Part shown: positions 14,687 to 50,382 of the stretch, piece after piece
How the letters are laid out: every line of letters begins with the position of its first letter
Numbering within the stretch: the stretch's first letter is position 1
Source of the DNA: Catajapyx aquilonaris
Lineage: Eukaryota
Direction: 5' to 3'
NCBI GenBank assembly: GCA_000934665.2
Contig: JYFJ02002839.1
Span: forward strand, 1 to 50,382
Length of the DNA: 50,382 bases
Made by a program: the position numbers and the translations under genes
The notes under the pieces: generated by a model
Databases searched by the model: none
What the model was told of the DNA's origin: nothing
What the model saw: the letters and a program-made list of their open reading frames with translations, nothing else

Positions 14687-14780
14687 ATGGTAATAGGCTA
14701 TAATCAGTGTAGCAGACACTGGCCACCACATATACACTGGGGCAGTCATTATGCCACATTTAGCTAATTTTTATTCTTAC

Positions 14781-15108
14781 CTGTGGCTTCCCTATCCGCG
14801 GAATTGAGTGCTTCTCCGTTAAGGACTTGTATCCGCTTGTGGGCCACACCACATCTACTGCAGCCGGAGTCGAAACCCCATCACTTTCTCCCCTGAAGTC
14901 ATTGTTCTGCTCATATAGTACTCCAATCTGAAACACAATTTTGCATCACTACTTGTTGACAACATACTTTTAGATGTATATATATCTCATACCTCGCTAT
15001 CAATTCCGCTTTTTTCCCTCTCTTGCTTGCACCACGTAGCTCCAACTCCCACCGCAGTTTTTCGACAGTATGCGACCCATAATCTCTGGAAACAGGCGTG
15101 CCGGCCAT
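14781..15108 (-). pseudogene. SAP-domain gene fragment (two exons), probably the accessory gene of a DNA transposon
   Basis: MAGTPVSRDYGSHTVEKLRWELELRGASKRGKKAELIAR fits the SAP motif (xVxxLRxELxxRGxxxxGxKxELIxRL). Donor gtatga at ~14991, acceptor tttcag at ~14928 continuing LEYY..., next donor gtaaga at ~14780. The second exon may be frameshifted. Confidence 0.65.
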
Positions 15109-15206
15109 GCTTTCCTTATGCAGTCGGCCCGTCAAGAGAGAAAAACAATAACATTTTGCCCACTAACGCCGCCTGGCGGCCGAACTTTCGGTGAGCAAGA
15201 CCTATT

Positions 15207-17150
15207 CAAAGTTCTGACATATGTCCGATGCAGACCTGAAACGCGTTCCAATGTCTGAGATGATCTTGTCCAACGTTGGCTAGAACACATTGCAGCGAAA
15301 TGCTGCAGCTGCTCCTCCTCCTACAGGAACCTGTGAATACATATGTGCATCTTGGGCCTGAGATCTGGAACGCTTATTTCGCGATTCAGGAAGAAAAGGT
15401 TCAATGCCAAGGTAGGTTCTCTGCCACTAACTGGGCTTCTCTCATTATTTCGCGAAATCTGTCTCGCAGACACTGTAAGTCACTCAGCAAGTCTTTCATG
15501 AGTTGCACCTCCCTGTCTAGAGTCACCTCCGGGCACTTCATGACTTTGTTCCTGTCATCTATGTTGGTGAGCACCAATGAAGACATGACAATGCACAGAA
15601 AGGAACCAAAGTATTTCCTCAAGGATACAGCCTGAGTCCGTGCGTCAGATGGTAAATTAAGATCCAAAACTTCATCCAGCGCTTCGAGTATCAGTGGCAG
15701 ATGCATAGCTATTGGGCGGACGGCGTCCACTCTTGCCGACCACCTTGTTTGTGACTGTGCATGGAGACTTACATGTGCTGTATCTTTTAAAATCTTCCTC
15801 CATCGGGCGGGATGATTGCTGAAAAGCATGTACAATTGCTGAATATTTACAAAGAATGTGACCATATCGTGCTGTGACTCTGCCGCATGAACACCAACAA
15901 GGTTCAAGGAATGACATGCGCAAGGGGAAAACGTGGCTTGGGGATATTTCTTCAGAATTAGCTGCTGCACTCCACGATGCTTTCCAGCCATATTCGCCCC
16001 ATTGTCGTAGCCCTGGCCACGGCAGTCCATTATTGGTATCCCACATTTCTCCAGTTCATCCTCCAGCAAAGCAGCCAGATCAGCACCGGTCTTCTTCTCG
16101 AATGGTACAAACTTGAGGAAACGCTCTCGTACAACCCACTCACAACCTTGGCGGTCAGATTCACTGCATTGGGCGACGTATCTTAAAATGATGACATTTT
16201 CTTCACAGTGAGAGACATCGGGTGTTGCGTCGCAAATTTGAGAGAAATATTTTGCTGCACTTCTCTCATCCAGAATGGCAGTCTTCACCTTTTCGCCGCA
16301 TACAGCAATGAGTTCATTCTGTGACTGGGGTGATAAGTAGTGCACGTACATTTTCTTGCCATCTTTTTGATGTCTCACTTTTTCCAAAAATAGTCTTTCA
16401 GAAGGGGGTCATAATGAGAGATCAGTTCTAAAATTCCAAGAAAATTTCCATTGTGGGGATCGCCAATGGTGGAGCTTGATCCTCGGAAGGCAAGATTTCT
16501 CTCCGCCAAGAATAATGTCTCATCCAGCAAACGTGTTAGAATCTGCACCCAGCGCTCAGCTTCCATGTTAATATGAGCTTGAATTGCGCTGTCAATTCCA
16601 GACGCATTCGTTAATCTGTGTTCCACTTGCCTCCAATCTGTATACATCTTCTTGTGGTGTCCACTTGCCTCATGACTGGGAAGTTTATCATACATGCTCT
16701 TCCATGTCCCACCTGCAGGATCGAAACCAGCTTCTTGAGCAAGCTGAGGACTGTTATGTGCAGGCTGCACTGATAACAATCGACAAGGAAAACAGTACAA
16801 TGAGCGCTTGGACTCACTCCAAACAAGATAATCCCTCAATGTCCTTTCGCCATTCTTCAGAACCACTGATTGCAGACCTTGAGGAAATCGACGACCCAGG
16901 GAATCTTCGGATACTTTTTCTACCTGCATATTCAACCCAGATGCTGCTACTGAGATTATGACGGCATCTTTAAATTTTTGAGATGGATTACTTGGCCACA
17001 GTCCAGGATCACAGGAGACACGCAATGAGGGGTTGTCATCTGGCTGACTTGTAACTGTATTAGCTGGTCCAACTTCTTCAACTATATTACTGGTAGAGGT
17101 ACTGGTGCTGCTAGCCGTGATTGAAGCAATAGCATCAAGTTTGAGGTTCA
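15207..17150 (-). pseudogene. hAT (Tip100/ZMYM1-like) transposase, frameshifted and 3'-truncated
   Basis: TTF-type Zn finger (LVWSESKRSLYCFPCRL), DUF4371 (FLAERNLAFRG..NGNFLGILELISHYDP; YLSPQSQNELI), catalytic region (DATPDVSH; RGQGYDNGANMAG; CACHSLNL; TRWSAR). Frameshifts near 16380 and 15410; the reading continues FRCNVF*PTLDKIISDIGTRF to ~15207. Confidence 0.93.
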
Positions 17151-17568
17151 TGGAATGTGGCCGTGAGTAGTACAGTAAGTAGTAAGTAGTAAGTTGACCC
17201 AATAATAACAACGTGTGCTCTGAGCTAACACTAGCTTTAATCTGACTGCTTACAAACGCCTCCGCCAGGAGGAAGCATACGCCAAACCAAGCGCCAAACC
17301 CCCCCTTAGGAGGCGGTATGCTACAATAACCAAACACAAAACAATTACTGTAATGATGATTTCCTTACCTCTGTCGGGGTTGGTCTTCCCCTCCAAACAT
17401 ATGTATTGTGGGATAATGAAAAAAATATAATGAGCACCACCCACTCAAAAATCACTCCAGCTGCAGAGCACAACTCCGAATCCTCGCCGCTTACAGCACT
17501 TAACATCACATTCCCTTTTATCTGAATATATCACAACCCTTTTTATCTGAATGATGCACTAAATAACG

Positions 17569-18860
17569 TCATTCTGTTGATGCCTGTCCTGTAACGTTGT
17601 TCTGATTTGATGATCTGTGTGGGCGGTGAGATATCCTGTCTTTGAAGTGAAGGAGCCAGGATTTAATGTAGGTTTCTACATCTTTTTCAGTTGGATTCTT
17701 CACTTTTGCTACCATCTTTGCAGACTCTGGAAAGCACAGTATGTAGCATGTAAAGAGGACTGACTACTTCTATGCAACAGTCTAAAGCAATTCTGCACGT
17801 GTATACTCACCATGTAGTAATCTGGTTATTTGTGTAAACTGCTGGAACCTCACTTTCTTTGTCAGATTCAGTGGCGAACCATCAAGGTTGGTTGCCCCAG
17901 GGAGGGATGTTGATCCTGTCCAGTTAGTGAGATGGCACAGCTCATCAGCGATTAATTTAGGTAATGCTCGTGCCAAAAACTCGTTCAGAGAATTTCCCCC
18001 CAAATCTTTTAGATAGTCGGCCTGCAATAAGGGTGAAGGGAGACAATGCGAAGCCCAAATTAACTGGATGTTGGATACAGTACTTCTGTCTGTACCAGAT
18101 TCGCAGATTACGAATACTCGCTAAATCCATGATGTTGTTATCATTCAGCTTTTCGTGCAAGTTCCATCAATTGTGTAGACAGGTAGCACAGCATCACTAC
18201 CAAGACTTGGACAGCTCCTTCACTGATCCTTCCTGAAGTTGTCGCTGCGCTTCAGCTAATGATCGTTGTCCCTCAAGAATTGCATTCAGTTTTTGAAACA
18301 ATCGCTTTTCATAAACTGCAAAGTCAGCTGCACGAAGAGCAAACAAATAAAATACTTGAATAGATCAAGTAACTATGTTGATGTAACGCTCGAGAGAGAA
18401 GGATGATGTACCTTTGGTTATGTAGTCCGAATTTGTCTGGCAGAGGCTGCTGTTTGCTGAAGTAGTGCTTGTGAGAAGTGGGGTCACTGCTGCGGCTGAT
18501 GTCACTTCTCAAATTCAATGGAGTCAGGCCAAGTGTCATTTTGGAATTCCCTGGAAAACTGCAGTAGAAACAGTGATTTATCATTCTTTTACTGATGAGC
18601 AGTTTGTGAAATGAAAAATTAGAGATGGGGAGGATTAATTAAATGGTACCCTTCGAAATCATCATTGCTGATGCTGCTGGTTATGCTCTCGTTGTCTGTT
18701 GTCACTTCCACTACCTGAGGCGGTGACTCTTGTGTGGATTTCACAGGTGTACGCTTTTTCTTACTTTTCCTCCTCTTAGCTGGCAGTGGAACTTCTCTAG
18801 CCCTACTTTCTGATGAACTGACATTGTCACCTTCTGACTCAAGGTTTGAAGTAGTGCTTC
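17569..18860 (-). pseudogene. Multi-exon DUF4806-domain gene (usual accessory gene of some animal EnSpm/CACTA-type elements)
   Basis: Exon ~17810-18021 YLKDLGGNSLNEFLARALPKLIADELCHLTNWTG..KKVRF; last exon 17569-17726 ..EKDVETYIKSWLLHFKDR; upstream exons carry a basic NLS-like PAKRRKSKKKR. GT-AG sites visible; stops in the ~18130-18320 exon. Confidence 0.75.
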
Positions 18861-18865
18861 AACAT

Positions 18866-19032
18866 CTATCCGGATTCCCGGACTGTCCGGTATCCGGATA
18901 TCCGAGCCTGTTTCGGATCCCTCTTCCCAGATCCGCACATCCGGATAGTGTCGGACGGTCCGGATAGTCCGAGTTTCTGATCCGATCCGAGACACTTTGT
19001 ACCCATCGGGATCCGAGGATCCGGATCGAACG
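18866..19032. repeat. Array of short (A)TCCGG(A)/CGGAT motifs typical of hAT-type MITE interiors
   Basis: Repeated atccgg / ccggatatccg / ggatccg; termini not identified. Confidence 0.5.
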
Positions 19033-19327
19033 TTTGTTGTGAGAAATGAGCATATTTTATTCGCATAATTAAAAACGCATTTATTGGAGGCAGGTAAAAA
19101 CCTCCAGTCAAATGGTCCATCCCAAAGGCCTAGTGTCCATGTCAAAACATGAGGTTAATTCGATTTCCGTGCAGAAAAGCTCTCTTTCCTTCTTATTAGG
19201 CCTTCTTTCTTTTCAAATAATACTTTTAAGTCGGGTTTCTACATATACCGTACTTAGGCCTAAAGTGTTTCTTCGCATTTTGCTCGTTTAAATCGGATAG
19301 TGCAGGGCTACTCAATTGGAGGACCGT

Positions 19328-20190
19328 GAGCGAAGTCCAATCAGTTGGCAGTATGCCTGTTATCAAGATTAGATTAAAAACTTTCACTATTAACTCTATC
19401 AATTCATTCGATGACAATTTATAAAGTTCGTTGGGTAGTTTATCGGGTCCGCCCGCCTTCTTATTTTTCAAGTGTATTAACGCCCCCTGCAACTCACCAG
19501 TCGTTATGGGGCCATCTAATTTTAGTATGGAGAAGCCATTATATAAACTCATTGAAGCTATTTGGGCTCTCGATTCATGCCATATTTTGTAAGTGGTCTA
19601 ACCAGGTTTGTTCCTCTAATTTCGAAGCCACTTTACCATCTGTTTTGTATCTCTTAACAAGGGCCCAAAACTCCGCCGAGTTCTTCGTTGCTAACATCTT
19701 TTGCAATGTAACATTGCAATACAGCTTTTCTGTCGCTCTCAATATCTTCTTATATAGCGTGGCTCGTTTCCTATATTCCTTTCTCAAATCGTCCGTCGGG
19801 TTTGCTTTCCACTTCCGCATTGATTTCGAAAGTTCTCTTTTATGCTTTTTTTTGGGCTTCATCAAACCAAGGGTTGGCCTTTCTTTTGCATTTTCATTTG
19901 TGGTTTTAATTTCCCTTAATTTAGGATCACTTGCATCCCCTGTATCATTCGTCCGGCCAATCCCTGAGCTTCTGTATTTATTCTAAGTAATTCTCTGCAC
20001 AATTCTGTTACCCGTTGTTGTTCTAATTCCGTTTTGGACTGTTCCAATTTATTCCTGTCCAAAACTACTCTCGAGGCACGACATTGTTCCTCCCCCGACT
20101 CCTGCCCCACACAACTAATGTAAATCGGGAAATGGTCCTTTTGTGTCACCAATTTTGGTGAACACAAATGAGAGCGCTGTTGGTTCATTT
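19328..20190 (-). mobile_element. LINE (non-LTR retrotransposon) ORF2 fragment from the end of the endonuclease to the start of the RT region
   Basis: DHFPI (APE C-terminus), KNSAEFWALVKRYK, and GPITTGELQGALIHLKNKKAGGPDKLPNELYK..FNLILITGILPTDW (conserved pre-RT KAPGPDGxPNE block). Contains stops and frameshifts. Confidence 0.88.
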
Positions 20191-21957
20191 CAAGTCCCCA
20201 TTTATTCGAGCGGTATTTAAGGGCGGATGATTAGGTAAAAGGAATTGTCAGGTTATCTGGGTAGAGGGGTAGATCTGTACAATGTCGACAAGATCAATAA
20301 CGAATAGGTGACCCCATACAAAGGGGTGTTATACACCTATCCACGACACTATGTCAGGATATTCTCCCACGAGTGTCGGGCCAGTTCTCCGGGGTGAACC
20401 CCACGAGAAAAAGGCCTCGAATGGATGCGGTTGGTGGCTTATATACACTGTCAACTTTGAAGCAATAAATTTATTGGACTAAGACAATAAAAGTATTGCT
20501 CCCCATTCCAATGTTTCCCCCAATAAAAATATTAGGAAAGCAATACAGATATTGTGTTTACGCAATGAAGACATCGTGTCCACACAATTGAGTTATTGCA
20601 ACCCCTAAATAAATACATTGTGTTCTCACAGTACAATGTTTCGGGAATATATTTATTGTGGTCTCCACATATATTGATTGTGTTTGATAAATATGTTTAT
20701 TGAGATGATGCAATAACAGTATCGTTTCCACGACAAAATATACATTCAATAAATTTATTGAGCTTGTCAAGTATATTCATTGCATTGTCCCAATACGTTT
20801 ATTTCCATTGCTGATGAATCTGTTGTGTAAACTCAATAACTGAAATTCGCCTGGTCAATCCATTTATTGTGTTAGCCAAATACAGTTATTGTAAACACTC
20901 CGTAACTAATTACCCCATTTCAGATGTTTATTTCTGACATAAAACTATGGCAGTTTTAAATGAAATTAAGACACAGCCTTTTCCACACATTGGTGCTGCC
21001 CAAGACACACACAATCAAAGTGAAGAAAAAAAACTTAAAAACAAAAAACCCACCACCACATAAATAGGCCGTCCCAGTTATTTGGCTGTAATCTGCTTCC
21101 ACAAAGCTTTGGCCCTGTAGCTGGGGGAACAGTCATCAAGTCTGTAAATGTAATGGCCAATGAACTTTTGAAATTTTTTTTGATGTGAATTCAAGCCAGA
21201 ATGTGTATGCCGATGCGAAATAACACACAACTGCATGGCTGCCATCTTCGCACTGGCAAATCCTTCTTCCATCTATGACAAGGTGGTATTCATCGCTCAG
21301 GAAGATGTTGTCCTGGTCGTACGTAATGGCAACCAATGGCTTTGCCCTGTCGCAAGGTTCATCTCCACCCTCCCCCTATTAAATAAGAGCATTCATCATT
21401 AAAATCACACCTTTCCTTATTACAATTACCATATTCCTGCTTTGAGCAGACACCGGAGCTACACACAAGTGGGAAGGGAGGCAATTTTCCCTAGGCCCCA
21501 TGGCAGAGAACATACTAAAGCACCCTGAAGAAATACTAAAGCTTGAAATTCATGGTTACAATTTTCAAAAGGGGCCCCCATCAGAACTTTTCCCCTGGGC
21601 CCCAAGCCCTCCCAGACATTGCAGGCCCACGTGCATATGGTCAATGTGAACTAACCTGCTGCTGAAAAATGGAATCTACAGATTCCCCCATCTTCTCCAC
21701 CACAATGAGGGTCGCAGCAAAAGCTCCAAACCCCGAATGTCGGTGATGGTGCCCAAGTGTCTCTTGGCATCTGCCAAGTACCGCTTCACTGGGAACTCAA
21801 TGTCCCTTTTAGCCTTCTGGAGCAATGGTTGGACTAATGGACCCATGTTTTGCAGAAAGCATTTGTCGGCATCAGTCACACCCTTAATTCGTTGGAATTC
21901 CTTGATTATCTGCAATTTTAACATGAAAACAAATTCTTAATTTTGGACCCATACTAG

Positions 21958-24900
21958 TGTGACAGGATGGGCACATAGATCAAGTCTATGACCGGAGCAG
22001 AGGGGATGCCAAAGTAAACAGAGGCTAACCGTATGAACTGGGTGTTTATTTCCTTCGGGATGGAACGGGTACACATAGGTAGGGGAAAGGTGGTGATCAA
22101 GGGGCAAGCTGACAGTGCAAGACCCGGTGGTTGTGACCACCCCGACCAGAATATTCTCCTGGACCGGGAGAGGCCCCGACTGGTGGGTGACCGCGGTATA
22201 TATAGTACTCTGACGCCCCACAGCATGATGGGAAGTTTTATCAGGAGCCAACCAGAGGCGGGCGATTACACAGAGTCGCAAGATAACAAGGGGGTTCCAC
22301 GGTCAAAACACGCAAGGCAAGAAATGGGGTAGGACAGTGCAGCTGGTGCTGTCACACACCTCGCCAGGGAGACTCCGCCAAGGATTTAAACAATACGAAG
22401 GCGGGAGTAGAAAACAATACCATAAACATACGTCATACCCAGCCATACAGCATAGACACATGGTTCAAACAAACAGAACTAAAACATGATAATCTTCATT
22501 TCATTCAAAGCCAAAATCAAAACCATGTGTCAAGAGGATCAAAAGAGGCCCCAATACAAATGGGGTAGGTGGCTCTTGTGTGGTAAAAGCAAAATCAAAG
22601 AGGAGGGACACGGAGACAAACTCGTGACATAGTTACATGAGGTAGTCGGGAGCCTCATCTTCATCTGACGAGCTCACTATTATGACGTCATCTGTCCTTG
22701 GTGGTGGTGCTGGCTGCGCTGGGTGCGCCAGGGGCCTGGCTACATCAGGTGTTGAATGCTCCAGAACTCGAAGAGGTGTTTCAAAGTAGTCCTTTGGGGC
22801 TGGATCAGAAATCGGGGCACAGCCTATGAGACATCCGCGGTGGAAATCCAGCATGCAGTGGTGTGCTGCCAGAAAATCGGCACCCACCACCACGGAGGCC
22901 ACCGAATACGGGACGATCCAAAACGGGTGTGGGAGTAAGGCTCCTCCGATCTTCACCTCTGCTTCGCACCGGCCCACCGGACGAATCAGCTGACCGTCGC
23001 ACATGACCAGTCTGGGTAGGGGCTGGTTGGGTAGAAGCGCAGGGCGATGTTCTTCCGGCATTGCGTCCAAACAAGAGGCGGCAATGGAAGAAACGGCGGC
23101 ACCGCTGCTGACTAAGGCTGCAAACTGTAGTCCGCCAACGGTGACTGGCGTGGTTACAGCAACAATCAAGTCTGCAGGTGGGGTGTAACAAGCCATCGCT
23201 GTTGCTCGGGTTGCTCTTCTCAAAGGTGGTGGCAGGAACTGCTATCTGGTTATGAGGACCGTACCACACAACCCGGGAATTTATACCCACGGAAAATATC
23301 CATCATGCACTTGGCTCTGTATTCGAGGTCAGGTGGGACTGAGGTTAATACAGTCCGATTCAAGTTGGGTGCGAGGGGGCATTTAACCACAAATGACCAT
23401 AAAAGAAATGCAGAGTTAGTTGGGCGCGATTGTACGTACAGCACGTTATCAGAATCAGATGTTCTTATCAGGATCAAGTGTTCTTTTAACTGCCACAACA
23501 CATACGACGTCTAATTACGACTGGTTTCACTATTCACGGACATCAAACGTACACTCGAAATGCTGCAAGTAGACTTACTACAACGAGGTCAGCTCTTCTG
23601 CGTACGACTAGGAGTCTTCTGCTCTTCTGGCTGCTCGTAGTTTTACGTATACAGGGCGGATACTTCAGGTTGCGGCTCGGCGGCATCTTCGCAATGGACA
23701 GCTCGTAGTCTTGCTGTTGACGGGGTCGGCTAAGAGTCTTATGCTTTCCTGGCGGCTCGTAGACTTATGTAGACGGGGCGGATACATCCGGTCACTGCTA
23801 GGCGTCCAAGCGGACATCCCCGCATTTAAGGGGTGTGGAGTGGTTGATGTAGCGGTGTGTTCCTCGTTTTCTCGTGGCGACTTCTTCTCCATCCATGAGG
23901 GTCTTACGTGGAGGGAAGGAACGGGCAACGAACGGGATGGTGCTCGTTGGAAAAAAAGGAGGAAGGGAAAAGCATTTGACGCTCAAAAGGGAGGATGGAC
24001 GTGGTGAGGATACGTCCTCCAAATGACTAAACGTGTCGGGATTTCACGTAGTCGGTTACTTAAGAGTTCCGTGTGCAGAACACATGACGACCGTAGACTG
24101 CTCATACTCACGGTATGGTGTCGTCAAAAGGGTCAACGACGCGGGGTAAGGCGTCTGACCACCAACATCTGCTCCTCTGTCCATGTGGAAGGCACGGATA
24201 GAACAAAAGGGAACAGATTTGTGAGCCAACCGGCTCAAAGGAAGGGCAAAAGGGCGGAGGGATAGGGGTATGGTTAAATAGGGCTCACCAACGATGCTTG
24301 TAGACTCACCAAGGCACCTGAACGGAACGTGTTCAGTGCACGTGTGGCTTCTCGTGGAGCTGCACGTAGGTTTACGTCTACTTCTTGCTTCGTGATGGAG
24401 ACCATTAGTAGCGGAAGTCTGGTACACACAGGTAGGATTGCTCGTACACTTAAAGGACTTCTGCTTCGGCTCGTACTGGTTGTGGATGATGCTTCTCGTA
24501 GCCACAGCACAGGTGATCGTGCCACTGAGGTCGATCCAGACGCTGAGAAGGGAGTTCGGCTGCGAATGCTCGTAGGCACCGGGCTGCTCGTACTTCTGCT
24601 CGTATACATACGACTGCTTCTTCGCATCTGGGCTGCTCGTACTTCTGTTCGTAGCCGTAGGGGTTTCGGCTGGTGCGGCTCCGTACACGTAGGACGTCTC
24701 CCCGTGTTTGGGCTGCTTAGGCGGCAAGGGAAGTCTTCCAACGGTCCAGATTGTGAGTCGTATCCCGTACGTAAGTTGTACGGAGACAATAGGAAGGGTA
24801 GGAGAGAACAGGGTAAAGAGGTAGTGTTCGTGGGGTATTCGTGGGTAAGGGTAGGAGGGTCTAAGGAAAAGGGTAACTGACGGTTTATGTCAGTGGAGGA

Positions 24901-25478
24901 AAACGGACATCCCTGGCAGTCCGTAACAGTGTACGCAAGGACACCACAGATACATACGGTGAACACGCAAAACCCACGTAGGGATAACTGCAACGCTCCG
25001 AATACCTCTTAGGTTCCGTGATCCACACATACGTACTGTGAGAGCACATACTTTGGCAATCCCACTTCTGGCACCACTTTGTGACAGGATGGGCACATAG
25101 ATCAAGTCTATGACCGGAGCAGAGGGGATGCCAAAGTAAACAGAGGCTAACCGTATGAACTGGGTGTTTATTTCCTTCGGGATGGAACGGGTACACATAG
25201 GTAGGGGAAAGGTGGTGATCAAGGGGCAAGCTGACAGTGCAAGACCCCGTGGTTGTGACCACCCCGACCAGGATATTCTCCTGGACCGGGAGAGGCCCCG
25301 ACTGGTGGGTGACCGCGGTATATATAGTACTCTGACGCCCCACAGCATGATGGGAAGTTTTATCAGGAGCCAACCAGAGGCGGGCGATTACACAGAGTCG
25401 CAAGATAACAAGGGGGTTCCACGGTCAAAACACGCAAGGCAAGAAATGGGGTAGGACAGTGCAGCTGGTGCTGTCACA
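21958..25478 (-). mobile_element. Young non-autonomous Gypsy-type LTR retroelement inserted in an intron of the SAMD3-like gene
   Basis: LTRs 21958-22356 and 25080-25478 (399 bp, TGTGACA...TGTCACA, 2 mismatches seen). 4-bp TSD CTAG at 21954-21957 and 25479-25482. Minus-strand PBS TGGTGCCAGAAGTGGGATT (tRNA-Leu type) at 25058-25076. No RT, RNase H or integrase motifs. Confidence 0.95.
22633..23196 (-). CDS. Retropepsin-like (aspartic protease fold) protein with catalytic Asp replaced by Ser
   Basis: From ATG 23196: ..VTVGGLQFAALVSSGAAVSSI..RLVMCDGQLIRPVGRCEAEVKIGG..HPFWIVP..VVVGADFLAAHHCMLDF. This matches the Gypsy protease pattern ALVDSGAxxSxI...ILGxDFL, except for the D position (codon AGC). 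Confidence 0.8.
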   Translation of the reverse strand: MACYTPPADLIVAVTTPVTVGGLQFAALVSSGAAVSSIAASCLDAMPEEHRPALLPNQPLPRLVMCDGQLIRPVGRCEAEVKIGGALLPHPFWIVPYSVASVVVGADFLAAHHCMLDFHRGCLIGCAPISDPAPKDYFETPLRVLEHSTPDVARPLAHPAQPAPPPRTDDVIIVSSSDEDEAPDYLM

Positions 25479-26247
25479 CTAGCATATCTGCAATGAAAAA
25501 TGCTTCATTACCTGGACAGCAGTGGACAATGCTGGATATTCCCTTAGAATAGTGTCTAGTGGTGTGCCACTCTCAATCAGTCCCCTCCTGTGGTGGAGAG
25601 TATTAACCATTCGGTTATCTATTCGGCCCATATCAGGACAGCGCTAGGAAGAAAAACATGCACACGTTTCAATTCCAATCAGTCGAGAGAGAGAGAGTCC
25701 ATCCAGGTCCAGCTTCATGTCAGATGGTAGTAAAGATAATATCAAGATATAGAGTATTGTCAGTCATTGACTCACAGTTTCCTTCTTCATCCATGCCCTG
25801 TGCTTCTCAAGGCTTGCTTCATCCTCCGAAGCAGGTGTCACAGACAGTCTTGTTCGCTTCTTCAGCTCACCTACGCCAATACCTGTAGCAAGTATGCTGT
25901 GGCTGTTCACAGATGCAGCATGTTCAGTCTTCCTAATTGCAGCCCTTTCGTTGTTGAATTTCACTGTCAGCGAGAGTCGCCAAGAAGCCTGGAATGTATT
26001 AACAATTAATGTCTTCATCAGAATGTTTATGTATAAATAATCCTTGTACAGAATCCAAGACATTAGCTGCAAATATACCTTGTAATATAATTGTTGCAAT
26101 CATTTGGTAAACAGGCCACCAACAAAATGCTTACACTACTTTCCTCTCCTGCGGTGGTGTCGTCAGCTAGCATTGGAAATCTCCGAACAATGGTCAATGC
26201 AGCCTCCAAGTAATGGTCATGCTTTGATGTCCTGAAAGAGGTGATGA

Positions 26248-26250
<3 letters not shown>

Positions 26251-26324
<74 letters not shown>
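26251..26324. repeat. (ATT)n microsatellite in an intron of the SAMD3-like gene
   Basis: Direct reading. Confidence 0.95.
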
Positions 26325-29090: not shown

Positions 29091-29190
29091 TTAACCCCTT
29101 CGGCTCCAGATCGGCCCGAACCACACAGTTTTCGTCTTACGCGTACTCCGAAGATACGGACAAGATATTTTGCAAATAATAACAGCTATA
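29091..29190. mobile_element. Possible piggyBac-type terminus that truncates the EnSpm transposase
   Basis: TTAA-CCCCTT at 29091 exactly where EnSpm homology ends; no partner end found. Confidence 0.35.
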
Positions 29191-38865: not shown

Positions 38866-39079
38866 CACACTTAGGGATGTGCAGTTAGGAGCCCAAAATC
38901 AAGGGGTACAAGAGGAAATGAAGTCAACAAATTTTGTCATTTCATGTCCACTCCTACTTTTTTTCTACTTTATTGTATGGACAGGCAATATAACATTGCA
39001 CATAGACTTCTTCTGTTTCAACCAGACATTAACAGCTCACATGTTGAGGGAAAGTGCCACTTGCATTGTGATTAGAATA

Positions 39080-39422
39080 CAGTGGAGCATCGATTATCCG
39101 AACAGAGTCTGTCAAGGGGGTGTTCGGATAACTGATTGTTCGGATAACTGATCATTTAAGGGGGAAAATTGTACGGGTGTCGTAGGAGCAATATGAAACT
39201 AAGAAACAGTGATATTAACCACAGAACTGTATATTTTCTGTCACAGGCATGTCTTAAAAATACTGTACATGTACCTTACTGTCCTTACATGAAGTAGTCC
39301 TGCAGTTTAGGGGGGGAAAAGGCGTTTTTTTGGGTTTTTGTTTTTTGTTTTTTGCCGACCCGAAAATGTTCGGTTAACCGATGGTTTAGTTGATCGGTGT
39401 TCGGATAATCGATGCTCCACTG
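39080..39422. mobile_element. Tc1/mariner (Tigger/pogo-like) MITE
   Basis: TA-CAGTGGAGCATCGATTATCCGAACA ... TGTTCGGATAATCGATGCTCCACTG-TA. Confidence 0.92.
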
Positions 39423-40743
39423 TATTTGTAAAAAGTGTGGGTAAAGTGATTGGGTAATTGCATGACACCGAATCGTAATGTTGTCCTCTTTGTCTTTGAC
39501 AGGTTGTGCAGATATGAGCTGCCAAACCCCAGTCGGTGCAATGAGTATGACAGCGAGCAGAGCAACTGATACCTGGATTTGGCTGAAGACACTTGAAGCT
39601 AATTGCCCAAATGTCACAAAACTGGATGCTACAGGGTGGTTCTACAAGTGACATTTGTATGTGGAGACTTCAAGTGGCAACCTTTGGCCAAGCTGTCTTC
39701 TAGAGTTTCACCTGAATGCACCTACCCATTGGTGCAGCCAACCTGCCGTGTTCCTGTGCCATTCTCTTCTACAAGCAGTTTTCTGTGCCAAAGTACTGTC
39801 CACATTCAGCAACTTCAAGCATGCACCAAGTTATGAGCCATTCCAGTACTGGTGTGTTAGACTAAGTGCTTGCTAAGTGCACCTGCAATGAAGAAGACAG
39901 ATCCTGGGATCTGATAACACTTCATAGAACCAATGGATTAGGTCTTTAAGCTTTGCCAAGGGTCCAGACAGCTGAGGACTGAGTGGAAGGACTTGGAGAT
40001 GCAACATGGATACGGAGGCCTCTGGGACAATATGGGTGGGATGGGCTTCAGTCCCCCAACCATCAAGAGATCCCTTGCGGGATGCTGGCGGGGACAACGT
40101 GAGGGTTGCAGTTGGGAAGAAGACCCAGGGGCCTAATCCACGCCTTCTAATCGTTCAGGAGTAGACGCGACAGACGGAGTTAGACCATCACCAGAAAATC
40201 TGCATCGACGTCAACTGCCCCGCAGCATCTTAATGGACCATCCACCAGTCGTCAAAGAGTCATTCCATGTCAAATCATCCCACTGATTCTGCCTTGACCC
40301 GTCACATTTTCATGAAACTTGGTGTGCTATGGGTGACAAATGTATTGGCCGGTGTTGATGGGTATATAGAGCCGTCCATCGGCAGCGGGAGAAACTGACA
40401 TCAGGTTACGATCAAGTTACGAACCCTGCCGCTATTAGAGGTGCGTCGGTCGGGAGTCGAGACTGGGAGGGTGGGGGTGGGGATGGGGAGAGCATGCGAA
40501 GGAGGGAGACCAGATTAGAGGGGGGGAGTCCTATGTGTCAGGAGATGGTTAAATAGGAAAGCGATACAGATTATTTGGGCTTCGTCGGCTAAGAAGTGCA
40601 AGGTCACGGGCATTTTTAAGACTCGGAATTTGTGTATCACTTCGATTTCACAGTTATCTGTGATGCGTGTTGGCCGCGCTGTAAATGTGTCAGTTGTCAG
40701 ATCATTCTTTTATCGATGCAGTATTCCATGCGACGACGATACA

Positions 40744-40745
<2 letters not shown>

Positions 40746-40782
<37 letters not shown>

Positions 40783-41090
40783 AGTAATCATAAATAATAC
40801 AAATAATAAATAAATAATAGTAAATAAATAATAAATTAATTGGAAATAAATAATAAATTAATTGTAAATAAATAAATTGTAAATAATAGTAAATCAATAA
40901 TAAATGACTAATAGTGATAATAAATCAATAATAAATAACAGTAAATAAATAATAAATGACTAATAGTGATAATAAATCAATAATAAATAACAGTAAATAA
41001 ATAATAAATAACAGTAAATAAATAATAAAATGATAATTAATAATAAATTAATAATTAATTATAATTAATTATAATAAAAAATAATGAAAA
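40746..41090. repeat. Degenerate AAT/AAAT simple-repeat expansion in the left arm
   Basis: Direct reading; includes a duplicated ~50-nt unit. Confidence 0.9.
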
Positions 41091-42215
41091 CAATCCGATC
41101 GGATGTATGTGTTCATTTCATATTTGACTCGACAATATTAACAAGAATGAAAGCCATGATCCGACTGTGGTCCGATCGCGATGTTCAAGTCAGGCGTGAA
41201 AGGCGTCATTGAGGTGGGCCGTATCTCGGACATCATTGCTGAAAGAAACCATTGTCTTCGCCGCTCGCTAGTTTTTCACTTCCAGCAATGACTTCCGAAC
41301 AACTTCAACACAAATGCACGTTATTGTATCGTTTGATGTGTCGGTTATGAACAAACTCCAATGTTACTGGCAGCCAGAGAGGTTTTGAAGGCAAGTTAAG
41401 AGGAAACCCAGTCCTCAGCTGCCAAAAATGGGGTATCAGTTGTCATTTTATTTCATGTCTTTGTGTGCTTGCTAACGTCATGAAAATTATTTGGGGTGCT
41501 CTTCAGTGTAGCTACCTGGATTAGAGTTACTTAATTACGAAAAATTGAGAGGCTAGGTAGTGAAAATAAATTAATAATCAAGATGGATCACTAATTTTTA
41601 AAATTTATACGTCAAGCCATGCCCACCATCACAACACATGGATTCACATTTTTGAAGGACATACTTCACATGTTATGATCGAGATGGAATGGAAAAGAGC
41701 ACAATTTCGACACCTAACTTCGCGATTTATTTTCATTACCTAGCTTCTCAATTTTTCGTAATTAAGTAACTATAATCCAGGTAGCTACACTGAAGAGCAC
41801 CCCAAATAATTTTCATGACGTTAGCAAGCGCACAAAGACACGAAATAAAATGCCAACTGATACCTTTTTTTTGGGCTGCTCAGGACTGGGTTTCCTCTTA
41901 ACTTACCTTCAAAACCTCTCGGGCTGCCAGTAACATTGGAGTTTGTTCATAACCGACACATCAAACAATACAATAACGTGCATTTGTGTTGAAGTTATTC
42001 GGAAGTCATTGCTGGAAGTGAAAAACTAGCGAGCAGCGAAGACAATGGTTTCTTTCAGCAATGATGTCCGAGATACGGCCCACCTCAATGAAGCCATTCA
42101 CGCCGTACTTGAACATCGCGATCGGACCATGGTCGGATCATGGCTTTCATTGTTGTGAACATTGTCGAGTCAAAAATGAAATGAACACATACATCCGATC
42201 GGATTTTTTTCAGTG

Positions 42216-42217
<2 letters not shown>

Positions 42218-42248
<31 letters not shown>

Positions 42249-42267
42249 GTAGTAGTAGTAGTAGTAG

Positions 42268-42305
<38 letters not shown>

Positions 42306-42315
42306 TATTATTATT
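42218..42315. repeat. (AAT)n(AGT)n(ATT)n compound microsatellite in the right arm
   Basis: Direct reading. Confidence 0.9.
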
Positions 42316-44543
42316 CATGCATCGTCGTCACATGGAATACTGCATCGATAAAAGAATGATCTGACAACTGACACATTTACAGCGCGGCCGCCAACACGCA
42401 TCACAAATAACTGTGTGAAATCGAAGTGATACACAAATTCCGAGTCTTAAAAATGCCCGTGACCTTGCGCTTATTAGCCGCCGAAGCCCAAATAATCTCT
42501 CTCTTTCCTATTTAACCATCTCCTGACACATAGGACTCCCCCCCTCTAATCTGGTCTCCCTCCTTCGCATGCTCTCCCCATCCCCACCCCCACCCTCCCG
42601 GTCTCGACTCCCGACCGACGCGCCTCTAAGAGCGGCAGGGTTCGTAACTTGATCGTAACTTGATGTCCGTTTCTCCCGCTGCCGATGGACGGCTTTATAT
42701 ATACCCATAAACACCGGCCAATACATTTGTCATCCATAGTACCAAGTGTCCTTACCTAGTTATGAATGAAAACCACAAAGATTTTTTTTTTTTTTTGCCT
42801 GCAATTCAGAAGTAATGAAAGTTCAAATTTTTATGAAAAATTTCTGCATCTTGAAGTAGTTAAGCACTATTTGCTCAGGAACTAGATGAGATAGAGACCT
42901 GTGCAATGTCTCACTTCAAAAGTCTCTTGATACTTTTTTTCCCCCCATATGGTGGCTGTGAACTCAAGGCCATTGTTTTTTGTTGAACCCATGAACATTT
43001 TAGTGACATTATGCAACCTTCTTTTCACCTTCTGGTAAAGAAAAACCCAACCATTTGGCCTACAGGGATTCACTGTGCAAAGTATATCAGTAGAAGGAAT
43101 CCAGAGCACATCAGCACATGGTGAAGGGGAAATAAGAAGGTTCTGATGGGTGCAGAAATGTCATTTTCTAGAAATTTTGCAAAGTTGTGAATACTCTATC
43201 TCAACAATGTCAAATAGCCAACAGCTGTCCACAAGATATCTCTGCAGGTGATGTAGAAATCTCATGTCATGAGTTCCCTTGGGTTGATGACCTTGTCTCT
43301 CATATCTCCCATGGTGGCCAGTATCGGAGGATGTGTGTCACGCTGCTGGTGTGGAGGCAGGGAAAATGAGTGTGCAACCAGGGTTAACAATAACAACTTA
43401 GGTAGACAAATGTGGCCGTTTCTGTACTTTAAGCTCCGGCTCCATGTGATGCCAGAGTGTGCGTGGTTGCATTTCATCAGTGAGAAATTCTGCACAATAA
43501 TTTACATTGCAACCTTTGAAATATTGCTTTTAAATGGAATATCTATGAAGGTGGACCCTACAGGCTGTGAAACCTTAATATATGCATGTCAGAAGCCATT
43601 TTCATGTCATGTGTGCCATAAATGATTGCTCAGAAATTTCGCTGTTTCACCCATTGCTGGCACGATTCAGGGCAATCTGGTGTAGGATGGTATGTTGGTT
43701 CAAGGCTTGCTGCATAACTCATGGAATGCAGGAGAGGCAATGAAGGAAGTTGTTGGCCAGTCACTTTCTGCACGAGGTGCACAATTATCTGGGAAATGGA
43801 GTGCATGTTGACCAAGGGGTACGTCATAGACCTGCCAGGTCTGCCTTTCCTCCACCTCCAGCACCTCCACCTCCAGAATCGGGTTGAGCAGCGGTATCCA
43901 TGCGGCATTATTCCTGGTTGATGTGTCCCTGTAGCAATTCCAGAATGCCTTTATAGCCTCTGGTGTACCCCTAATTGGGCGGAACACCCTCCTCCATGTT
44001 CCTCCTCCATGAAGGAAGGTGGTCTGCTATGGAAGTCGAAAGTGAATGGTCCTCATTTGGCTGGCGGGTGAAGACGACATGAGGAGCCGTGGTGCATAGG
44101 GGCATATGTCCTTGACAAGGAGATTTGGGAAAAACACAAGAAACCGTTGCACTATGATCCCTGCAGCCTAGCTGTTTCATATCCTATGCTTACGTAGAGC
44201 AACATGATTGCATTAATTACCTGCAGCAACAAGTTACAAATATCCATAGTGACAGAGATATAAAACATTGAAAATTGAGATATGCCCCTTTGCTCCCAAG
44301 ATGAGTATCTTTGCCCCTTTGCTTGCCAGGCACTGTCACCGCCCCTTTGAATGCATAAAACATCATGAAAATAGTTGTTTTCCCCTCACTCTTGCTACTG
44401 AACCTCAACAATTGGCCTGGAGTATCTGTTAAGATTGGGAAATGAAGAATGGGATGTGATTAAAAATTTACTGGAAGAATAGTAATGGTCTACATCTACA
44501 CAGCCATACAAAATATTATATCACTGATATAATATCACTTCAC

Positions 44544-44959
44544 ACCGAAGCAGTGGTAGCGGAGGGGATTTGGTATCCGGCTGCAAATCGGGAGGTCCAG
44601 GGATCAAATCCCCAGGCCGGCAACTCTTACCGTGGTTTTCTGTGGTTTCCCACGGTCACCCCCAGGTGAATACCGGAGTTGTTTCCTAATCGTAGGCCAC
44701 AGCCGCTTCCTACCTTTCCTATCCATGTCCCACACTGGAGGAGGTGCGGTGTTTGTGGGAGGTCTCTTACCCGCACCTAGAGGGTCGTCTTTCAACCTAA
44801 GCCCTCTGGAGGACTGCACACGGCCTCCGCCATGAGACATTGCACTTGCACCACTGTCCCCCCTCCATCCTAGCACCGGAGAGATTGAAAATGGTCGAAA
44901 AACCTCCCCCCTATATAAGCCTGAAGGCTTCAAGGGTGTAATAAATAAAATAAAATAAA
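44544..44959 (+). mobile_element. tRNA-derived SINE with 15-bp TSD
   Basis: tRNA-like head (CTGCAAA loop, degenerate B box GGGATCAAATCCC); body ggttttctgtggtttccc..ccaggtgaataccgg..aggccacagccgcttcct, of the kind common in arthropod SINEs; (TAAAA)n tail. TSD ATAATATCACTTCAC at 44529-44543 and 44960-44974. Confidence 0.9.
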
Positions 44960-45099
44960 ATAATATCACTTCACGTAATGTGAGCAAAAGTCAACAAATC
45001 AAATTTTCACTCCCACGTCTTCTTCATTACACATGCAGTCTTCGTTTTCCTCCATACTTTCCCCATCTTTGTCATCAAGGATGCCAACGTACCATGACA

Positions 45100-46500
45100 A
45101 ATTTTGCTGGCTCCTCCACTCGTCACCAAAACTCTTTGCCAATAGCATGGCCACATCTTTTTTTTTTAGCTGGCTGAAGATGCTTTTGCATTGGCACTTG
45201 CCTCATCCTGAATTTGGGTGCTCTTCTCCGCTGCAATGATTTTGCCACTGAGTCCGCAAAATCACCACGGTAATTTGGCACACCAGTGACAGTCAATGGA
45301 TTCCGCTGAATCAATATTCTCTTCATTTCACTTATGCCCCAAGTTTAGCATAAGTCATGCATGCTGCCTTCCAGTCATATAGGAGCCAATCCTTCTCAAT
45401 TTGTAGAACTGTGCCGACCTGTTCATAGAGGGCACAATATTCCTCTGGAAGTGTTACGGTGGTCTTTCTCCTAAGCAACTTTTCAACTCTCCCAAACACA
45501 CGGTCAGCAGGAAGGAAGGAATGGCCGCGTACCGGAAAGGTAACTAAGATTTCAGTCAGTGTTTCAGGAGCCTTCGTCTTTAGGAAATGCATCAACATAT
45601 GAATAATGTGAGAGTTCTTATTCTGCCCTCCACATCCATCACAAAATAAGCGTAGCATTTTCACTCCTGCAAGGTCTGCGTAGGTGCACAGAAAGTGGTA
45701 CAGTGCAGAGCCTACTTAATTCGGTCCCCGCCCTGCTTGCACTTCCGTCCAGTTGTAAAATTTTGGTTGCACCGATGACGTGTCAACACATGTAAGTGAA
45801 TAGTAGTTAATCTGCCGACCGTAAAATTGCTCTTGTATCGGCACTTTCGGCAGGGGCTGCACTTGTTGCAGATCAAAGCAGTAGGTACGACTACTTTCTG
45901 GTGGATTCTTGAGTGCATCATAAAAAGCTTTGGCACGTAACTTGTGTACACGTTTGGCAATCATGGCCTCCAATTTGATGGCACCTGTTTTACTCGCTAT
46001 TTCATTGTCCAGTCTTGTACAGAGGCTGCAAACATCTGACGATGGTGCCCTGAACCCAATGTTATATTCGCGGAGGAAAATTCTCCGAAACATGTCTTAT
46101 GACACATGATGCTCACAGGCATGCGATTGTACATACATCATATGCAGACGAGCAATAGACAGTTCCGAAGAGAGAGATATCCGTCGTGATTTCGCCCTGT
46201 TGTAATGGCTTTCAGTAGCCTGCAACTTGCCTATGAATTGTCGAACATGATCCTTCTTGCTCCTTGACCGGTGGGACACTCGGTCACCACCACGTCTTGA
46301 TTGGGATGGGCTGACACCATCGTTGATGTTCTTCAGAATCCCACGCAGCCTTTTTCCACCTTTTGCATGTCCAATTGCATAAATGAAGAACACACGGCAA
46401 ACTTTAATCCTCCCATGTGCAGCAGTAGGAAACTAACAAGAGACACAACCATGATCATTCTGGTGCTCTTCTACAACATGGGCTCATGGCGACATACTGG
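45100..46500 (-). pseudogene. Sola1-type DDD transposase with in-frame stops
   Basis: VCRVFFIYAIG; ESHYNRAKSRRISLSSELSI; YNIGFRAPSSDVCSLC; CFDLQQVQPLP..FYGRQ; WTEVQAGRGPN*VGSAL; LFCDGCGGQNKN; FPVRGHSFLPADRVFGRVEK. Confidence 0.85.
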
Positions 46501-46875
46501 TATGACATGATAGGTTTTATTACTTATGTATTTGTATTATTTGCATGAAATGATTACATTACACTACTTACCGTGAATGTTTCTTGAAGGGTGTGCCTTT
46601 TTTTGCTCGACGAACCCGCAGTGTCTCGCTGTCTCTTGCGCATTGGCAGCTTCACGTGCAAGTAGATTGCCACCCGCCTGTCCTGTTCGGCCTTCGTGGG
46701 GAACTGGTAAATTTGGGCCCTAGCTGCATCTATGTCCTTTGCAGTTACCAGATCGCATTTATAAACTCCCTTCTTGTGCTGGCAGGGACATGACTATCTC
46801 CAGCGGTGGAGGACCCTTGTACCTGATTTGAAAACCAACGTATTACATTATGCTAACGTGACACAGTCTTGTAGG

Positions 46876-46930
46876 CAGCGGCGTAACCACGGTTTTGAGC
46901 TGGGGGGGGGGGNCGCCCCACCCCCCTTTT
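46876..46930. mobile_element. hAT/Tip100-like terminus
   Basis: CAGCGGCGTAACCA followed by G-run and C-run subterminal tracts; partner end not seen. Confidence 0.45.
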
Positions 46931-47571
46931 TGGTCGGAAAAATATGTATGTATGGCATAAGCTGTATGTCGTTGTACAGGAGAGGAGTTGAATTACTTTT
47001 CCTTCGACATTCTCAAAGAAATACATGTAAAATGAGAAGAATGTAGTTTAATAGGCACAAAAAACAGCGGAAGGGGCACGTAATTTGCTATCCAACAACA
47101 TTGATATGAGATGCATGAAATCTGATATATTACATCTTCGTTTTGTGCCACTACGTCTACCCCTGTATTTTCTTACGGTACCCCATTGGTTTTTATACTG
47201 TCCTTATTCCTTTTGTTCGGGGAAGTTGAATCCTTAGATCCTCGTTGTGTGACGTGATTAAAGGGTTTTAGTATTAAATCGTCATCTTTGATTTGGCCTG
47301 TACTAGTGCTAGGCTGTTGCATTTCGACATAATCTTCTGCCAGGTTAGTTAATGTTACTACATTGGATCGAAATGTTAAAGACTCGTCAAATAAGGATTC
47401 TACTTGTATTGCCCTTCTGCCTTCAATATCATATCTACGCACACTAGGGGTAAGATTTTGGAATTTGGGGTGGAATTTTGGAACTGAAGTGTCTCTTTTC
47501 TTCATAGCACATAACCTGAAGCTTTTAATTATCATGAGACCGCATAATTATGATAACAACAACTATTGCCA

Positions 47572-48647
47572 TCATACTCGTAGATGCCCATAAATACGTA
47601 ATTGAAGACTGCCACATTGATCCATCATTATTACTATCCATCCATGATGTTTCCGGAATTTCTTGTAATGAATCCAACTCGTTCTGCAATAATAATATTG
47701 CATAGCTATTGGTCGATCCATGTTCTTCTTAAATTGAGTGGATGTCCTCGACATAAAGGACTGATTTCGAGACAATGGATCTATCCAACTACTTTCTTCT
47801 GGTGTTAAAACACTTAAAATACGTGGAACTACTATGGATTGAATCAATGGGCAACCACTTGGTTGGTTAGCGATGTTGCGCCATTACCAATGACGCTACC
47901 ATTTATTCTGTCTATGAATGCTTCAGGATATTCTTGTAGAATTTTCATGCAAACAATGTTCAGTTGATTCTTAGTGGGCTTCAGGCATATGGCCTTGATA
48001 CCGTCACAAATGATCCGAACCATTTCTCGGCGGTCACTTGGTTGCCGACGCTTTCCCGACTTGCAGTCAGCCATCAGCTGTGGTGAAAATTTCCTCCATG
48101 GCGGAGAAAAAGACAGCTGCCACTCCCCCCTAATGGATGTTGAGGCAACAGCTGGTAGCACTGTCTGCTGAGATGTTACCTTGTCCTGACCAGCACTGGT
48201 ACAACATGCGGAAGCAATAAACTGATTAGTTGACATTCGTTTGTGATGGCATGGCATAGAGACGAATTTTTAAAATCCCTACACCAATGCTGGCCATCTA
48301 CTGCCAGAGGTGAAGCCTATGTGAATAGGGCATAAAAATTGCAACAAAACTAGTGGCCCACATGGTTGATTCAAACTGTGGGAATTTTCCATCACAAATT
48401 TAACAAAAACATGTTCAACTGACCAGATGCACAGCGGCCTTGCAGTGATGACGAAATCTTTCTCAAAAAGAGATTCGGCAGCACACCCTTTGAGGTCCTC
48501 TTCCACTCTCAAGAATGCCGCCAGGTCTTCTTCAGAGGTGTTGGCAGTTACACCCAACTCCTCAAGCCGCTGCCGACATGCACTCTCCTGCTCATGTGTC
48601 ACGCCTGGCATTGCTGCCCTCACTTCCTGGATAACTAAATCCATCAT
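47572..48647 (-). pseudogene. Accessory (SAMD3-like) gene of EnSpm element 2, 3'-truncated
   Basis: RLEELGV..EEDL N-terminal exon; WQLSFSPPWRKFSPQLMADCKSGKRRQPSDRREMVRII..LQEYPEAFIDRINGSVIGNG; located directly downstream of transposase 2. Confidence 0.65.
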
Positions 48648-48783
48648 CTCCTGCAACGAGAGCGACCATTATTAGTGTCATGTAATAACCGCAACATTTT
48701 TGTGACATCTTTTATGCAAGGTAAAAGGTACTTACTCCTCTATTTATTGTAGTGCAAGTACGGTCCGTTCAATGGCACGGTTG

Positions 48784-50288
48784 TTATGCGACAGCATGTT
48801 TCAAAATTACAAAGCTTCTACCTTGCATGTCATATTGGGCCAGTGTCTGATGGGTGCAAGCTAGTCTGGTCCAGCACAAGCAAATAATAGGATCTTTGCT
48901 TTTTGTAATTTCGAAAATGCCCAAATCATGCAAGTAATGACCCAACCAGGGTGACAGAACAAACGCTACATAATTGCTGTCTGTGTGCAACAGTATTGCA
49001 ACAATCTCTCCCAACAATAAATTGGGAGGACCTGATTTTTTTGACAATTACAAATTGTCCACGCTTGTACTCAATTCCATGAAGTATGATGGTCTCCCCA
49101 AGGACCAGGTCATTAATTGATGGCAAGTACTCATTCCTATGTACAGCCATTTGGATATTTTCACTGTACATATCCAAGTGAAATGGACTGCCTACTGCCA
49201 TGCTCACAGATGGCGGAAAGAGCTGACCTGCACTACAGTATGCCTGAAGGAGTTGATGGTGTTCAGCCATGAGGGATGTACAATTGATTGATTCTGATAC
49301 ACTGCTTCAAGTAACTGTGTTTACTTTCGAATCTCATAGTCCACACATTTAATAAAGGGCCAAACTTTATTATCAACAGAGGATAGTGCAGCATGTAGTG
49401 GTGCTTCGGGCGTAAATTGATGTCTCGGAAAAGTACCTTCCTACTATCAACATATTCCTCAATGAAAATCCTAACATGTCGCCTGCTCCTCTGAAATAAC
49501 TGGTGAGCATATGATTTCCACAATTTGCCTCAACTGCAGCAGAAGTTGCCATACTGGATTCTCAGTGTCTGTTATGTGCAAGCCAAGTATCAATAATGGT
49601 ATTATCCTCAACAAGCGCCAATTCTGGATTTCATGACCACCAGTTCGGTCCCCTTTGTTTGAAATACGATTGGGATTGTCCCTGGCTTCATTGGCTCTGC
49701 ACCGGAACTTATTCAAGGCCACATTCAGATTCTCATGTGTGAACCATCTCTTAGAGACAAAGTATCGCAGATAAATAGCAAGATCACACTGAACGATCCC
49801 CTCAAAAAAAATCGTGCGCAAGACAGGGAGGCAGTCCTGATTCACAAACTTGATATCCCTGCAATTCATTAAATATAGATCCTGATTTCACACCTTCCAT
49901 GCTAGCATCTGACACTCCATTTTGCTTTTGCTCCAGCACAAATGACACAGCAGTGTCATATGACTCCTTCGTTCGCAGGGCAAATGAATCCGGAATGGGA
50001 CATGCATGAAACTCACGCTTGGCCACAACGACAAAAGTAATGTACACTCCCAAAACTCTCCATGAAACCCCCAATACTGTGGCTGCCAAGATTATCGCCT
50101 GTGATGAACACAATCGAACCTTTAACTTTCGATGTAAATCCCAGATCCACACTCTCCGTCTCAATTTCCTTAATGTCCTCCACTAGCCTGCGATAGAAAG
50201 CCTCATGGCCAAATTTCTTGTAATGTTTCTCATGGCACAACATAGCCAACTGGATATTGTCCACCCTGGAACGGTTAAACCGGGGCGC
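48784..50288 (-). pseudogene. EnSpm/CMC transposase 2, multiply frameshifted, 5' part cut off
   Basis: RSRVDNIQLAMLC; ITGDNLGSHSIGGFMESF..YFCRC; GLPPCLAHDFF/EGIV; LRPKHHYMLHYPLLIIKFGPLLNVWTMRFESKHSY; MAEHHQLLQAY. Confidence 0.92.
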
Positions 50289-50382
50289 ATATTAACAAAC
50301 TGTACATGGCTAGAGAGACAGGCGGCCTGGGCCCCGCCCTCCCTCGCTCCGATTGGTCCTGCGTCTGGCGCGCTTTTAAAAA

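Follow-up and report, generated by a model that had tools for sequence, protein, structure and literature searches.

In a 50,382-base stretch of Catajapyx aquilonaris DNA (contig JYFJ02002839.1, hereafter the window), which is AT-leaning (GC content 0.38-0.52) and of animal type, we found that the span 14700-50290 has accumulated the decayed and mostly truncated remains of transposon genes belonging to at least five unrelated families, with all coding strands on the minus strand. This co-orientation, the diversity of families and the decay can be read directly from the DNA. As the single reading we rate highest, though tentatively, the span would be part of a strand-polarised, one-strand source locus of PIWI-interacting RNAs (piRNAs). 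Its layout fits such a source read on the plus strand, and an interpretation as a piRNA cluster appears reasonable and of a known kind.

In total, we identified seven solid, independent transposon coding relics in the span, and 7/7 face the minus strand: two hAT, two CACTA/EnSpm-like, one of the DUF7869 family, one long interspersed nuclear element (LINE) and one long terminal repeat (LTR) element. Since five of the seven are DNA-transposon types (hAT, CACTA-like and DUF7869), the claim of the original prediction, an earlier reading of this DNA, that the locus is built largely from DNA transposons holds. It had also listed ten coding relics, all facing the minus strand. Every relic that our tools recognise does so. 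Three further minus-strand items are soft: an open reading frame (ORF) with a SAP domain, a DUF4806 match under its threshold and a block of ORFs without classification; with these included, the count becomes 10/10 minus.

The weight of this observation depends on what is counted. Assuming random and independent orientation, the two-sided binomial p value is 0.016 for 7/7. It rises to 0.07 (7/8) with a sense, that is plus-oriented, short interspersed nuclear element (SINE) inside the span, and to 0.18 (7/9) when a sense LTR element abutting the span is counted as well. With the soft items, it is 0.002 for 10/10 and 0.039 for 10/12, the latter including the SINE and the abutting LTR element. 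The earlier figure of ten out of ten with p = 0.002 was overstated because the third of its hAT elements was not found, and because the plus SINE inside the span and the plus LTR element at its edge had been left out; the seven tool-supported relics give 0.016-0.07. Plus-oriented items had been described as non-coding or outside the span: both are indeed non-coding, but the SINE sits inside the span and should have been counted. Altogether, the same-strand observation is partly confirmed, being real but overstated, and the evidence for a non-random cause from this window alone is moderate.

Coding relics on the minus strand

The search for protein domains covered all 312 stop-to-stop ORFs of at least 60 amino acids in the window (149 plus, 163 minus) and 435 ORFs of 38-59 amino acids from both strands. 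Among these 747 ORFs, the Pfam scan revealed no transposon domain on the plus strand and no host-gene domain in any plus-strand ORF. Four matches in the span exceeded the Pfam cut-offs, all of them on the minus strand: SAP (14914-15162), DUF4371 (15404-16408), Dimer_Tnp_hAT (29322-29912) and DUF7869 (45335-45715). Two further matches of transposon type, an aspartic protease (22636-23241) and Plavaka (28184-29185), remained below the cut-offs and are minus as well. Weak non-transposon matches, far under the cut-offs, occurred on the plus (MSL2-CXC at 33630-33815, DltX at 27950-28090, and LysM3) and on the minus strand (TRIP13 lid, TAF1D, ZZ, YueH, SapA and Suppressor_P21). In agreement with the domain scan, tblastn with reference proteins for the LINE, CACTA-like and DUF7869 relics returned minus-strand matches only.

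A database-free count of ORFs of at least 100 amino acids gave 45 on the minus versus 20 on the plus strand across the whole span. The excess lies at 14.7-31.1 kb (25 minus versus 10 plus) and at 45-50.4 kb (10 versus 1), whereas the stretch between them (31.1-45 kb) is balanced, with 10 minus and 9 plus; upstream of the span (1-12.3 kb), five are minus and seven plus.

Two relics are assignable to the hAT superfamily by a dimerisation or associated transposase domain (Table 1). In hAT-1, the downstream ORF carries the C-terminal half of DUF4371 (E = 1.2e-7, 32.3 bits, cut-off 32.1). For the upstream ORF (16378-17364), which corresponds to the N-terminal half, 30/30 Atlas matches fall in DUF4371 clusters at 0.93, with an Atlas recognition of 2143, which is under the 2300 mark and weak taken alone. 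A C-terminal dimerisation domain is missing from hAT-1 and present in hAT-2, where Dimer_Tnp_hAT matches with E = 1.6e-6 and 28.2 bits (cut-off 21.4). Of the three hAT elements proposed earlier (Tip100-hAT, hAT-2 and ZBED-hAT), these two are borne out by Pfam. A third hAT was found neither among the ORFs of at least 60 amino acids nor among the 140 ORFs of 38-59 amino acids in 31-45.1 kb, and Pfam detected no zf-BED domain in either size class; tblastn using the hAT ORFs of the window as queries reached a best E of only 0.38.

Both CACTA/EnSpm-like relics match uncharacterised relatives of ~810 amino acids. Relic 1 has nine such relatives (best E = 4.6e-62), and relic 2, which may run on past the window end, shares 34% protein identity with relic 1 over 85 amino acids (E = 8e-15). 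Their affiliation is suggested by three sub-threshold matches that converge on the CACTA superfamily: Plavaka on relic 1 (E = 2e-3), Transposase_21 on one of the nine relic-1 relatives (E = 3e-4) and DUF4218 on another relative (E = 2e-5). What had been named EnSpm-1 and EnSpm-2 is hence a pair of related minus-strand relics, with a CACTA assignment that comes from sub-threshold matches. The DUF7869 relic gave a Pfam E of 7.2e-9 and aligns with an 842-amino-acid beetle protein at 50% identity over 97% of the query (E = 9e-114). It had been labelled Sola1, a name to which none of the tools used here connects the DUF7869 family.

The LINE relic contains an ORF of 123 amino acids that matched 1013 proteins at E <= 1e-3 in a phmmer search (best 3.7e-15). 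Among ten of the 150 listed matches, picked for their length, RVT_1 was present in 10/10 and the AP-endonuclease domain in 5/10, and the relic aligns to the segment just before RVT_1 in these proteins. Moreover, tblastn with 44 proteins gave 49 matches, every one of them within this single minus-strand interval, which upholds the earlier call of a minus-strand LINE. In the relic itself, Pfam detected neither the reverse transcriptase core nor an endonuclease domain, also when read-through frames were included.

The minus-strand LTR element is recognisable by two 400-bp LTRs that are 99.5% identical, by a TGG-initiated primer-binding site next to the right LTR, on the minus strand, and by a retroviral-like aspartic protease (E = 1.1e-4) with a weak match to Pfam Asp_protease. 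On the premise that the LTRs terminate in CA, CTAG flanks both ends as a target duplication. It had been called a Gypsy element; the element and its strand stand, but reverse transcriptase and integrase were not found by Pfam, and the superfamily is therefore not assignable.

The three soft items differ in what they offer. The SAP-domain ORF exceeds its cut-off (E = 2.5e-6, 27.4 bits, cut-off 23.9) and is on the minus strand as predicted; it may derive from a transposon or from a host gene. It is isolated and lies directly downstream of the truncated hAT-1. The supposed DUF4806 gene is not supported: its match to PF16064 reaches 12.5 bits against a cut-off of 25 (E = 0.19), and Pfam found no family on either strand in stop-read-through frames of 17401-21000. 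The unclassified block likewise gave no Pfam match, and a search among longer proteins yielded no relative for its part 47847-48668; the block may be a second gene belonging to the adjacent CACTA-like element, or may encode another transposon protein.

Table 1 Features located in the window, in order of position
Feature	Position	Strand	Evidence and remarks
Arf/Arl-like N-terminal P-loop fragment, 29 residues	4958-5052	plus	Pfam, PDB match
Non-autonomous LTR element	12308-14687	plus	primer-binding site, purine tract
SAP-domain ORF (soft item)	14914-15162	minus	Pfam SAP; origin either host gene fragment or transposon part
hAT-1 transposase relic, DUF4371 type	15404-17364	minus	two ORFs (329 + 335 amino acids), one frameshift between them
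Possible DUF4806-like relic (soft item)	17590-18120	minus	Pfam, sub-threshold
LINE (non-LTR retrotransposon) ORF2 fragment	19256-19850	minus	phmmer, tblastn
Young LTR retroelement, gag-protease region only	21958-25479	minus	LTR pair, primer-binding site
CACTA/EnSpm-like relic 1	27634-29164	minus	matches residues ~300-813 of ~810-amino-acid uncharacterised relatives
hAT-2 transposase relic	29322-31040	minus	three ORFs in different frames; frameshifts inferred
Palindrome, foldback-type inverted repeat, 1.26 kb	35274-36534		self-comparison; in relic-free middle stretch
Near-perfect palindrome, 2.4 kb	40314-42750		arms 84-97% complementary, AT-rich microsatellites within
SINE	44544-44960	plus	target duplication, A-rich tail
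DUF7869-family relic ("Sola1" in the original prediction)	45038-46411	minus	two in-frame stops
ORF-dense unclassified block (soft item)	47176-48668	minus	four ORFs of 103-141 amino acids
CACTA/EnSpm-like relic 2	49028-50288	minus	matches residues ~298-650 of ~810-amino-acid uncharacterised proteins

Plus-strand elements and the middle stretch

Two plus-oriented elements bear on the orientation count. The SINE is delimited by an identical 14-nt target duplication (44530-44543 and 44961-44974) and carries an (ATAAA)n tail at its right end; its tRNA-like head was judged by eye, and scans of the window with ARAGORN for tRNAs and with Rfam gave nothing. The second, the non-autonomous LTR element, has 479-bp LTRs (12308-12786 and 14209-14687) of 98.5% identity, a TGG-initiated primer-binding site after the left LTR and a purine tract before the right one. 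Its interior consists of 129-160-bp tandem repeats with no coding capacity, and Pfam gave no match. The element ends 13 nt before position 14700, where the original prediction had let the span begin. It also accounts for a strong negative GC skew at 12-16 kb.

Between 31.1 and 45 kb, the Pfam scan of ORFs detected no coding relic. The largest plus-strand ORF of this middle stretch (32908-33411) was considered as a candidate protein and rejected, as it is unlike one (Atlas recognition 878, best score 0.78). Self-comparison of the window for dispersed repeats that would give an orientation yielded only LTR pairs, tandem repeats and palindromes. In the 1.26-kb palindrome, arm segments are 90-95% complementary (78% across the whole gapped alignment), and its sequence is unrelated to that of the 2.4-kb palindrome. 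A transcript across the latter would form a long hairpin and is a possible source of endogenous small interfering RNAs. A perfect, MITE-like (miniature inverted-repeat transposable element) pair of 29-nt inverted repeats lies 350 bp apart at 39076-39426, and a 52-nt stretch at 1985-2035 is related to it in inverted orientation. Pure (TTA)n microsatellites occur at 26251-26324 (25 units) and 42269-42315 (16 units).

Candidate explanations for the shared orientation

If the span is a one-strand piRNA source, RNA polymerase II would start at or upstream of ~14.7 kb and read rightward on the plus strand through the relics. The long transcript would thus be antisense to the hAT, CACTA-like, DUF7869, LINE and LTR genes, and would be cut to 24-32-nt piRNAs that direct PIWI proteins against sense transcripts made by active copies at other loci. 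Selection would retain antisense insertions and remove sense ones, which would yield useless piRNAs or import poly(A) signals. As a speculation, the plus-oriented LTR at 14209-14687 could act as the promoter. Transcription, processing and function of the locus are in this scheme what we infer; that the relics are truncated and stem from at least five families, as in known clusters, speaks for it.

Several points weigh against such a source locus. Its direction of transcription on the plus strand is an assumption. The span contains a sense SINE whose target duplications are intact and whose tail is rich in AATAAA, and a sense LTR element is found at its presumed 5' edge; many plus-strand AATAAA motifs also come from an AT-rich microsatellite at 40.7-41.1 kb. 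Moreover, 14 kb of the 35.6-kb span are without any relic. Clusters resembling flamenco, as far as the cited account describes them, rarely hold sense insertions near their 5' end and are recognised by an enrichment in LTR/Gypsy elements (PMC10643416), while an LTR element makes up only one of the seven solid relics here. Furthermore, one-strand clusters of Rhodnius prolixus carry transposons on both strands in the portion of the study considered (PMC11614815), and most predicted Parhyale clusters are, according to the cited part of the report, bidirectional (10.1101/2025.05.30.656998). Arthropod clusters therefore need not be polarised. The more specific proposal of a strictly polarised, flamenco-style cluster, one of a genome-wide set outside flies that archives mainly cut-and-paste DNA transposons, is one we regard as doubtful.

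The probabilities behind our wording stem from a rough Bayesian weighing, made by judgement and not by computation, in which the three leading readings come out comparable. It assumes a prior of a few per cent for a polarised cluster, long introns that make up about one third of the genome and impose little orientation bias on DNA transposons, and neutral DNA for the rest.

One alternative is chance: in ordinary transposon-rich DNA, 7-10 independent insertions would happen to share an orientation, and the window would have been picked because it is striking. In keeping with this, the p values for the solid relics are modest once the sense elements are counted, the boundaries of the span were chosen post hoc (13 nt beyond the plus LTR element), and the middle 14 kb show no strand asymmetry. 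Additionally, 669 genome windows were scanned, and several such windows are to be expected; 7/7 would occur ~10 times if each window held seven relics, which at the same time lowers the standing of a piRNA source. If, however, the soft items are real and independent, the count of 10/10 would be expected only ~1.3 times among 669 windows holding ten relics each. Overall, we consider chance a possible but rather unlikely cause.

Another alternative, which we judge improbable without dismissing it, is that a plus-strand gene runs across the span with a very long intron, or with a long 3' untranslated or non-coding transcript. Purifying selection would then have purged sense insertions from it on account of the splice and poly(A) signals that they bring. 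The antisense bias known for introns is partial, not total, which also counts against this explanation. The sole plus-strand candidate for a flanking host exon in the window is the Arf-like fragment, ~10 kb upstream of the span. It matches Pfam Arf under the cut-off (E = 1.1e-3) and Arf6 in the PDB over 27 residues (E = 0.009), but its ATG is shifted out of frame by one base, a stop follows directly and the donor site is poor. No further Arf exon was found on the plus strand of the window by Pfam, nor a switch-II or G4 motif in a search with short motifs. The fragment is either a decayed gene piece or the initial coding exon of a gene that continues outside the window. The polyadenylation motif AATAAA is more frequent on the plus strand in raw counts (44 versus 31 on the minus strand), whereas masking of microsatellites and the SINE tail leaves 19 versus 31, which is the direction expected for a transcribed plus strand and not significant. 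Finally, mammalian introns are well known for an antisense bias of their transposons, notably for LTR elements and LINEs (PMC3088655, as far as cited here), but five of the seven solid relics belong to a class left out of that analysis.

We regard it as very improbable that the relics are not independent and that several arrived together within a single composite unit or two (for example a carrier element or a rearranged segment): although CACTA-like relic 1 and hAT-2 lie within 160 nt of each other and the SAP ORF, hAT-1 and the DUF4806-like stretch are contiguous, self-comparison showed no long terminal or direct repeats framing a larger unit, the minus-strand LTR element has its own target duplication, the two CACTA-like relics are too divergent in protein for a recent duplication, and decay differs widely between relics.

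Implications and comparison with known systems

If the proposal of a strictly polarised cluster archiving mainly DNA transposons is true, it would imply an antisense-selected capture of these transposons by a PIWI pathway independent of ping-pong. Confirmation of the source-locus reading by small RNAs would mean that strict antisense polarity, known so far mainly from the Drosophila clusters that trap Gypsy elements, evolves in a further arthropod as well, and that such polarity can target DNA transposons, which bears on the selection of piRNA clusters and on the PIWI branch used. Should that confirmation fail, the window would be ordinary transposon-rich DNA and the lesson is methodological: orientation counts need independent, tool-verified elements, the inclusion of non-coding elements and a correction for the number of windows scanned. 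In a non-exhaustive literature search, we came across no account of a cluster that is strictly polarised and in which DNA transposons dominate.

With mammalian introns, the span would share a co-orientation produced by the selective loss of sense insertions from transcribed DNA. The bias reported there concerns LTR elements and LINEs, with DNA transposons set aside in the part of the study cited (PMC3088655), unlike the composition of the span.

Other parallels are found among arthropod piRNA clusters. Mosquitoes possess a few flamenco-like, one-directional clusters (PMC7919454), with which the span would share a one-strand layout in a non-Drosophila arthropod whose genome is rich in transposons. 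The mosquito clusters, however, were defined by small-RNA data and reportedly have transposons at lower density and fewer piRNAs that map over them, whereas the span was delimited from sequence alone. The one-strand clusters of Rhodnius prolixus offer an example from an arthropod outside the flies, and, like the span, they include DNA transposons, described in the cited portion as Mariner and a few hAT-type elements (PMC11614815). With transposons on both strands, they lack polarity, which in our case is the sole observed feature.

A further comparison is with flamenco and the flam-like clusters of Drosophila, which the cited account defines by polarised, antisense transposon fragments and characterises by LTR/Gypsy enrichment with strand bias, lengths of 227-1085 kb, promoters and one-strand piRNAs (PMC10643416). 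There, Gypsy-family LTR elements alone drive the strand bias, in contrast to a span in which DNA-transposon types prevail. The flam-like clusters also have a mapped promoter and piRNAs, while the locus described here is seen over 35.6 kb, has no right-hand boundary within the window and is known from its nucleotides only. In its architecture, the span nevertheless resembles them: truncated fragments from many families are densely packed, and nearly all of them lie opposite to the putative direction of transcription.

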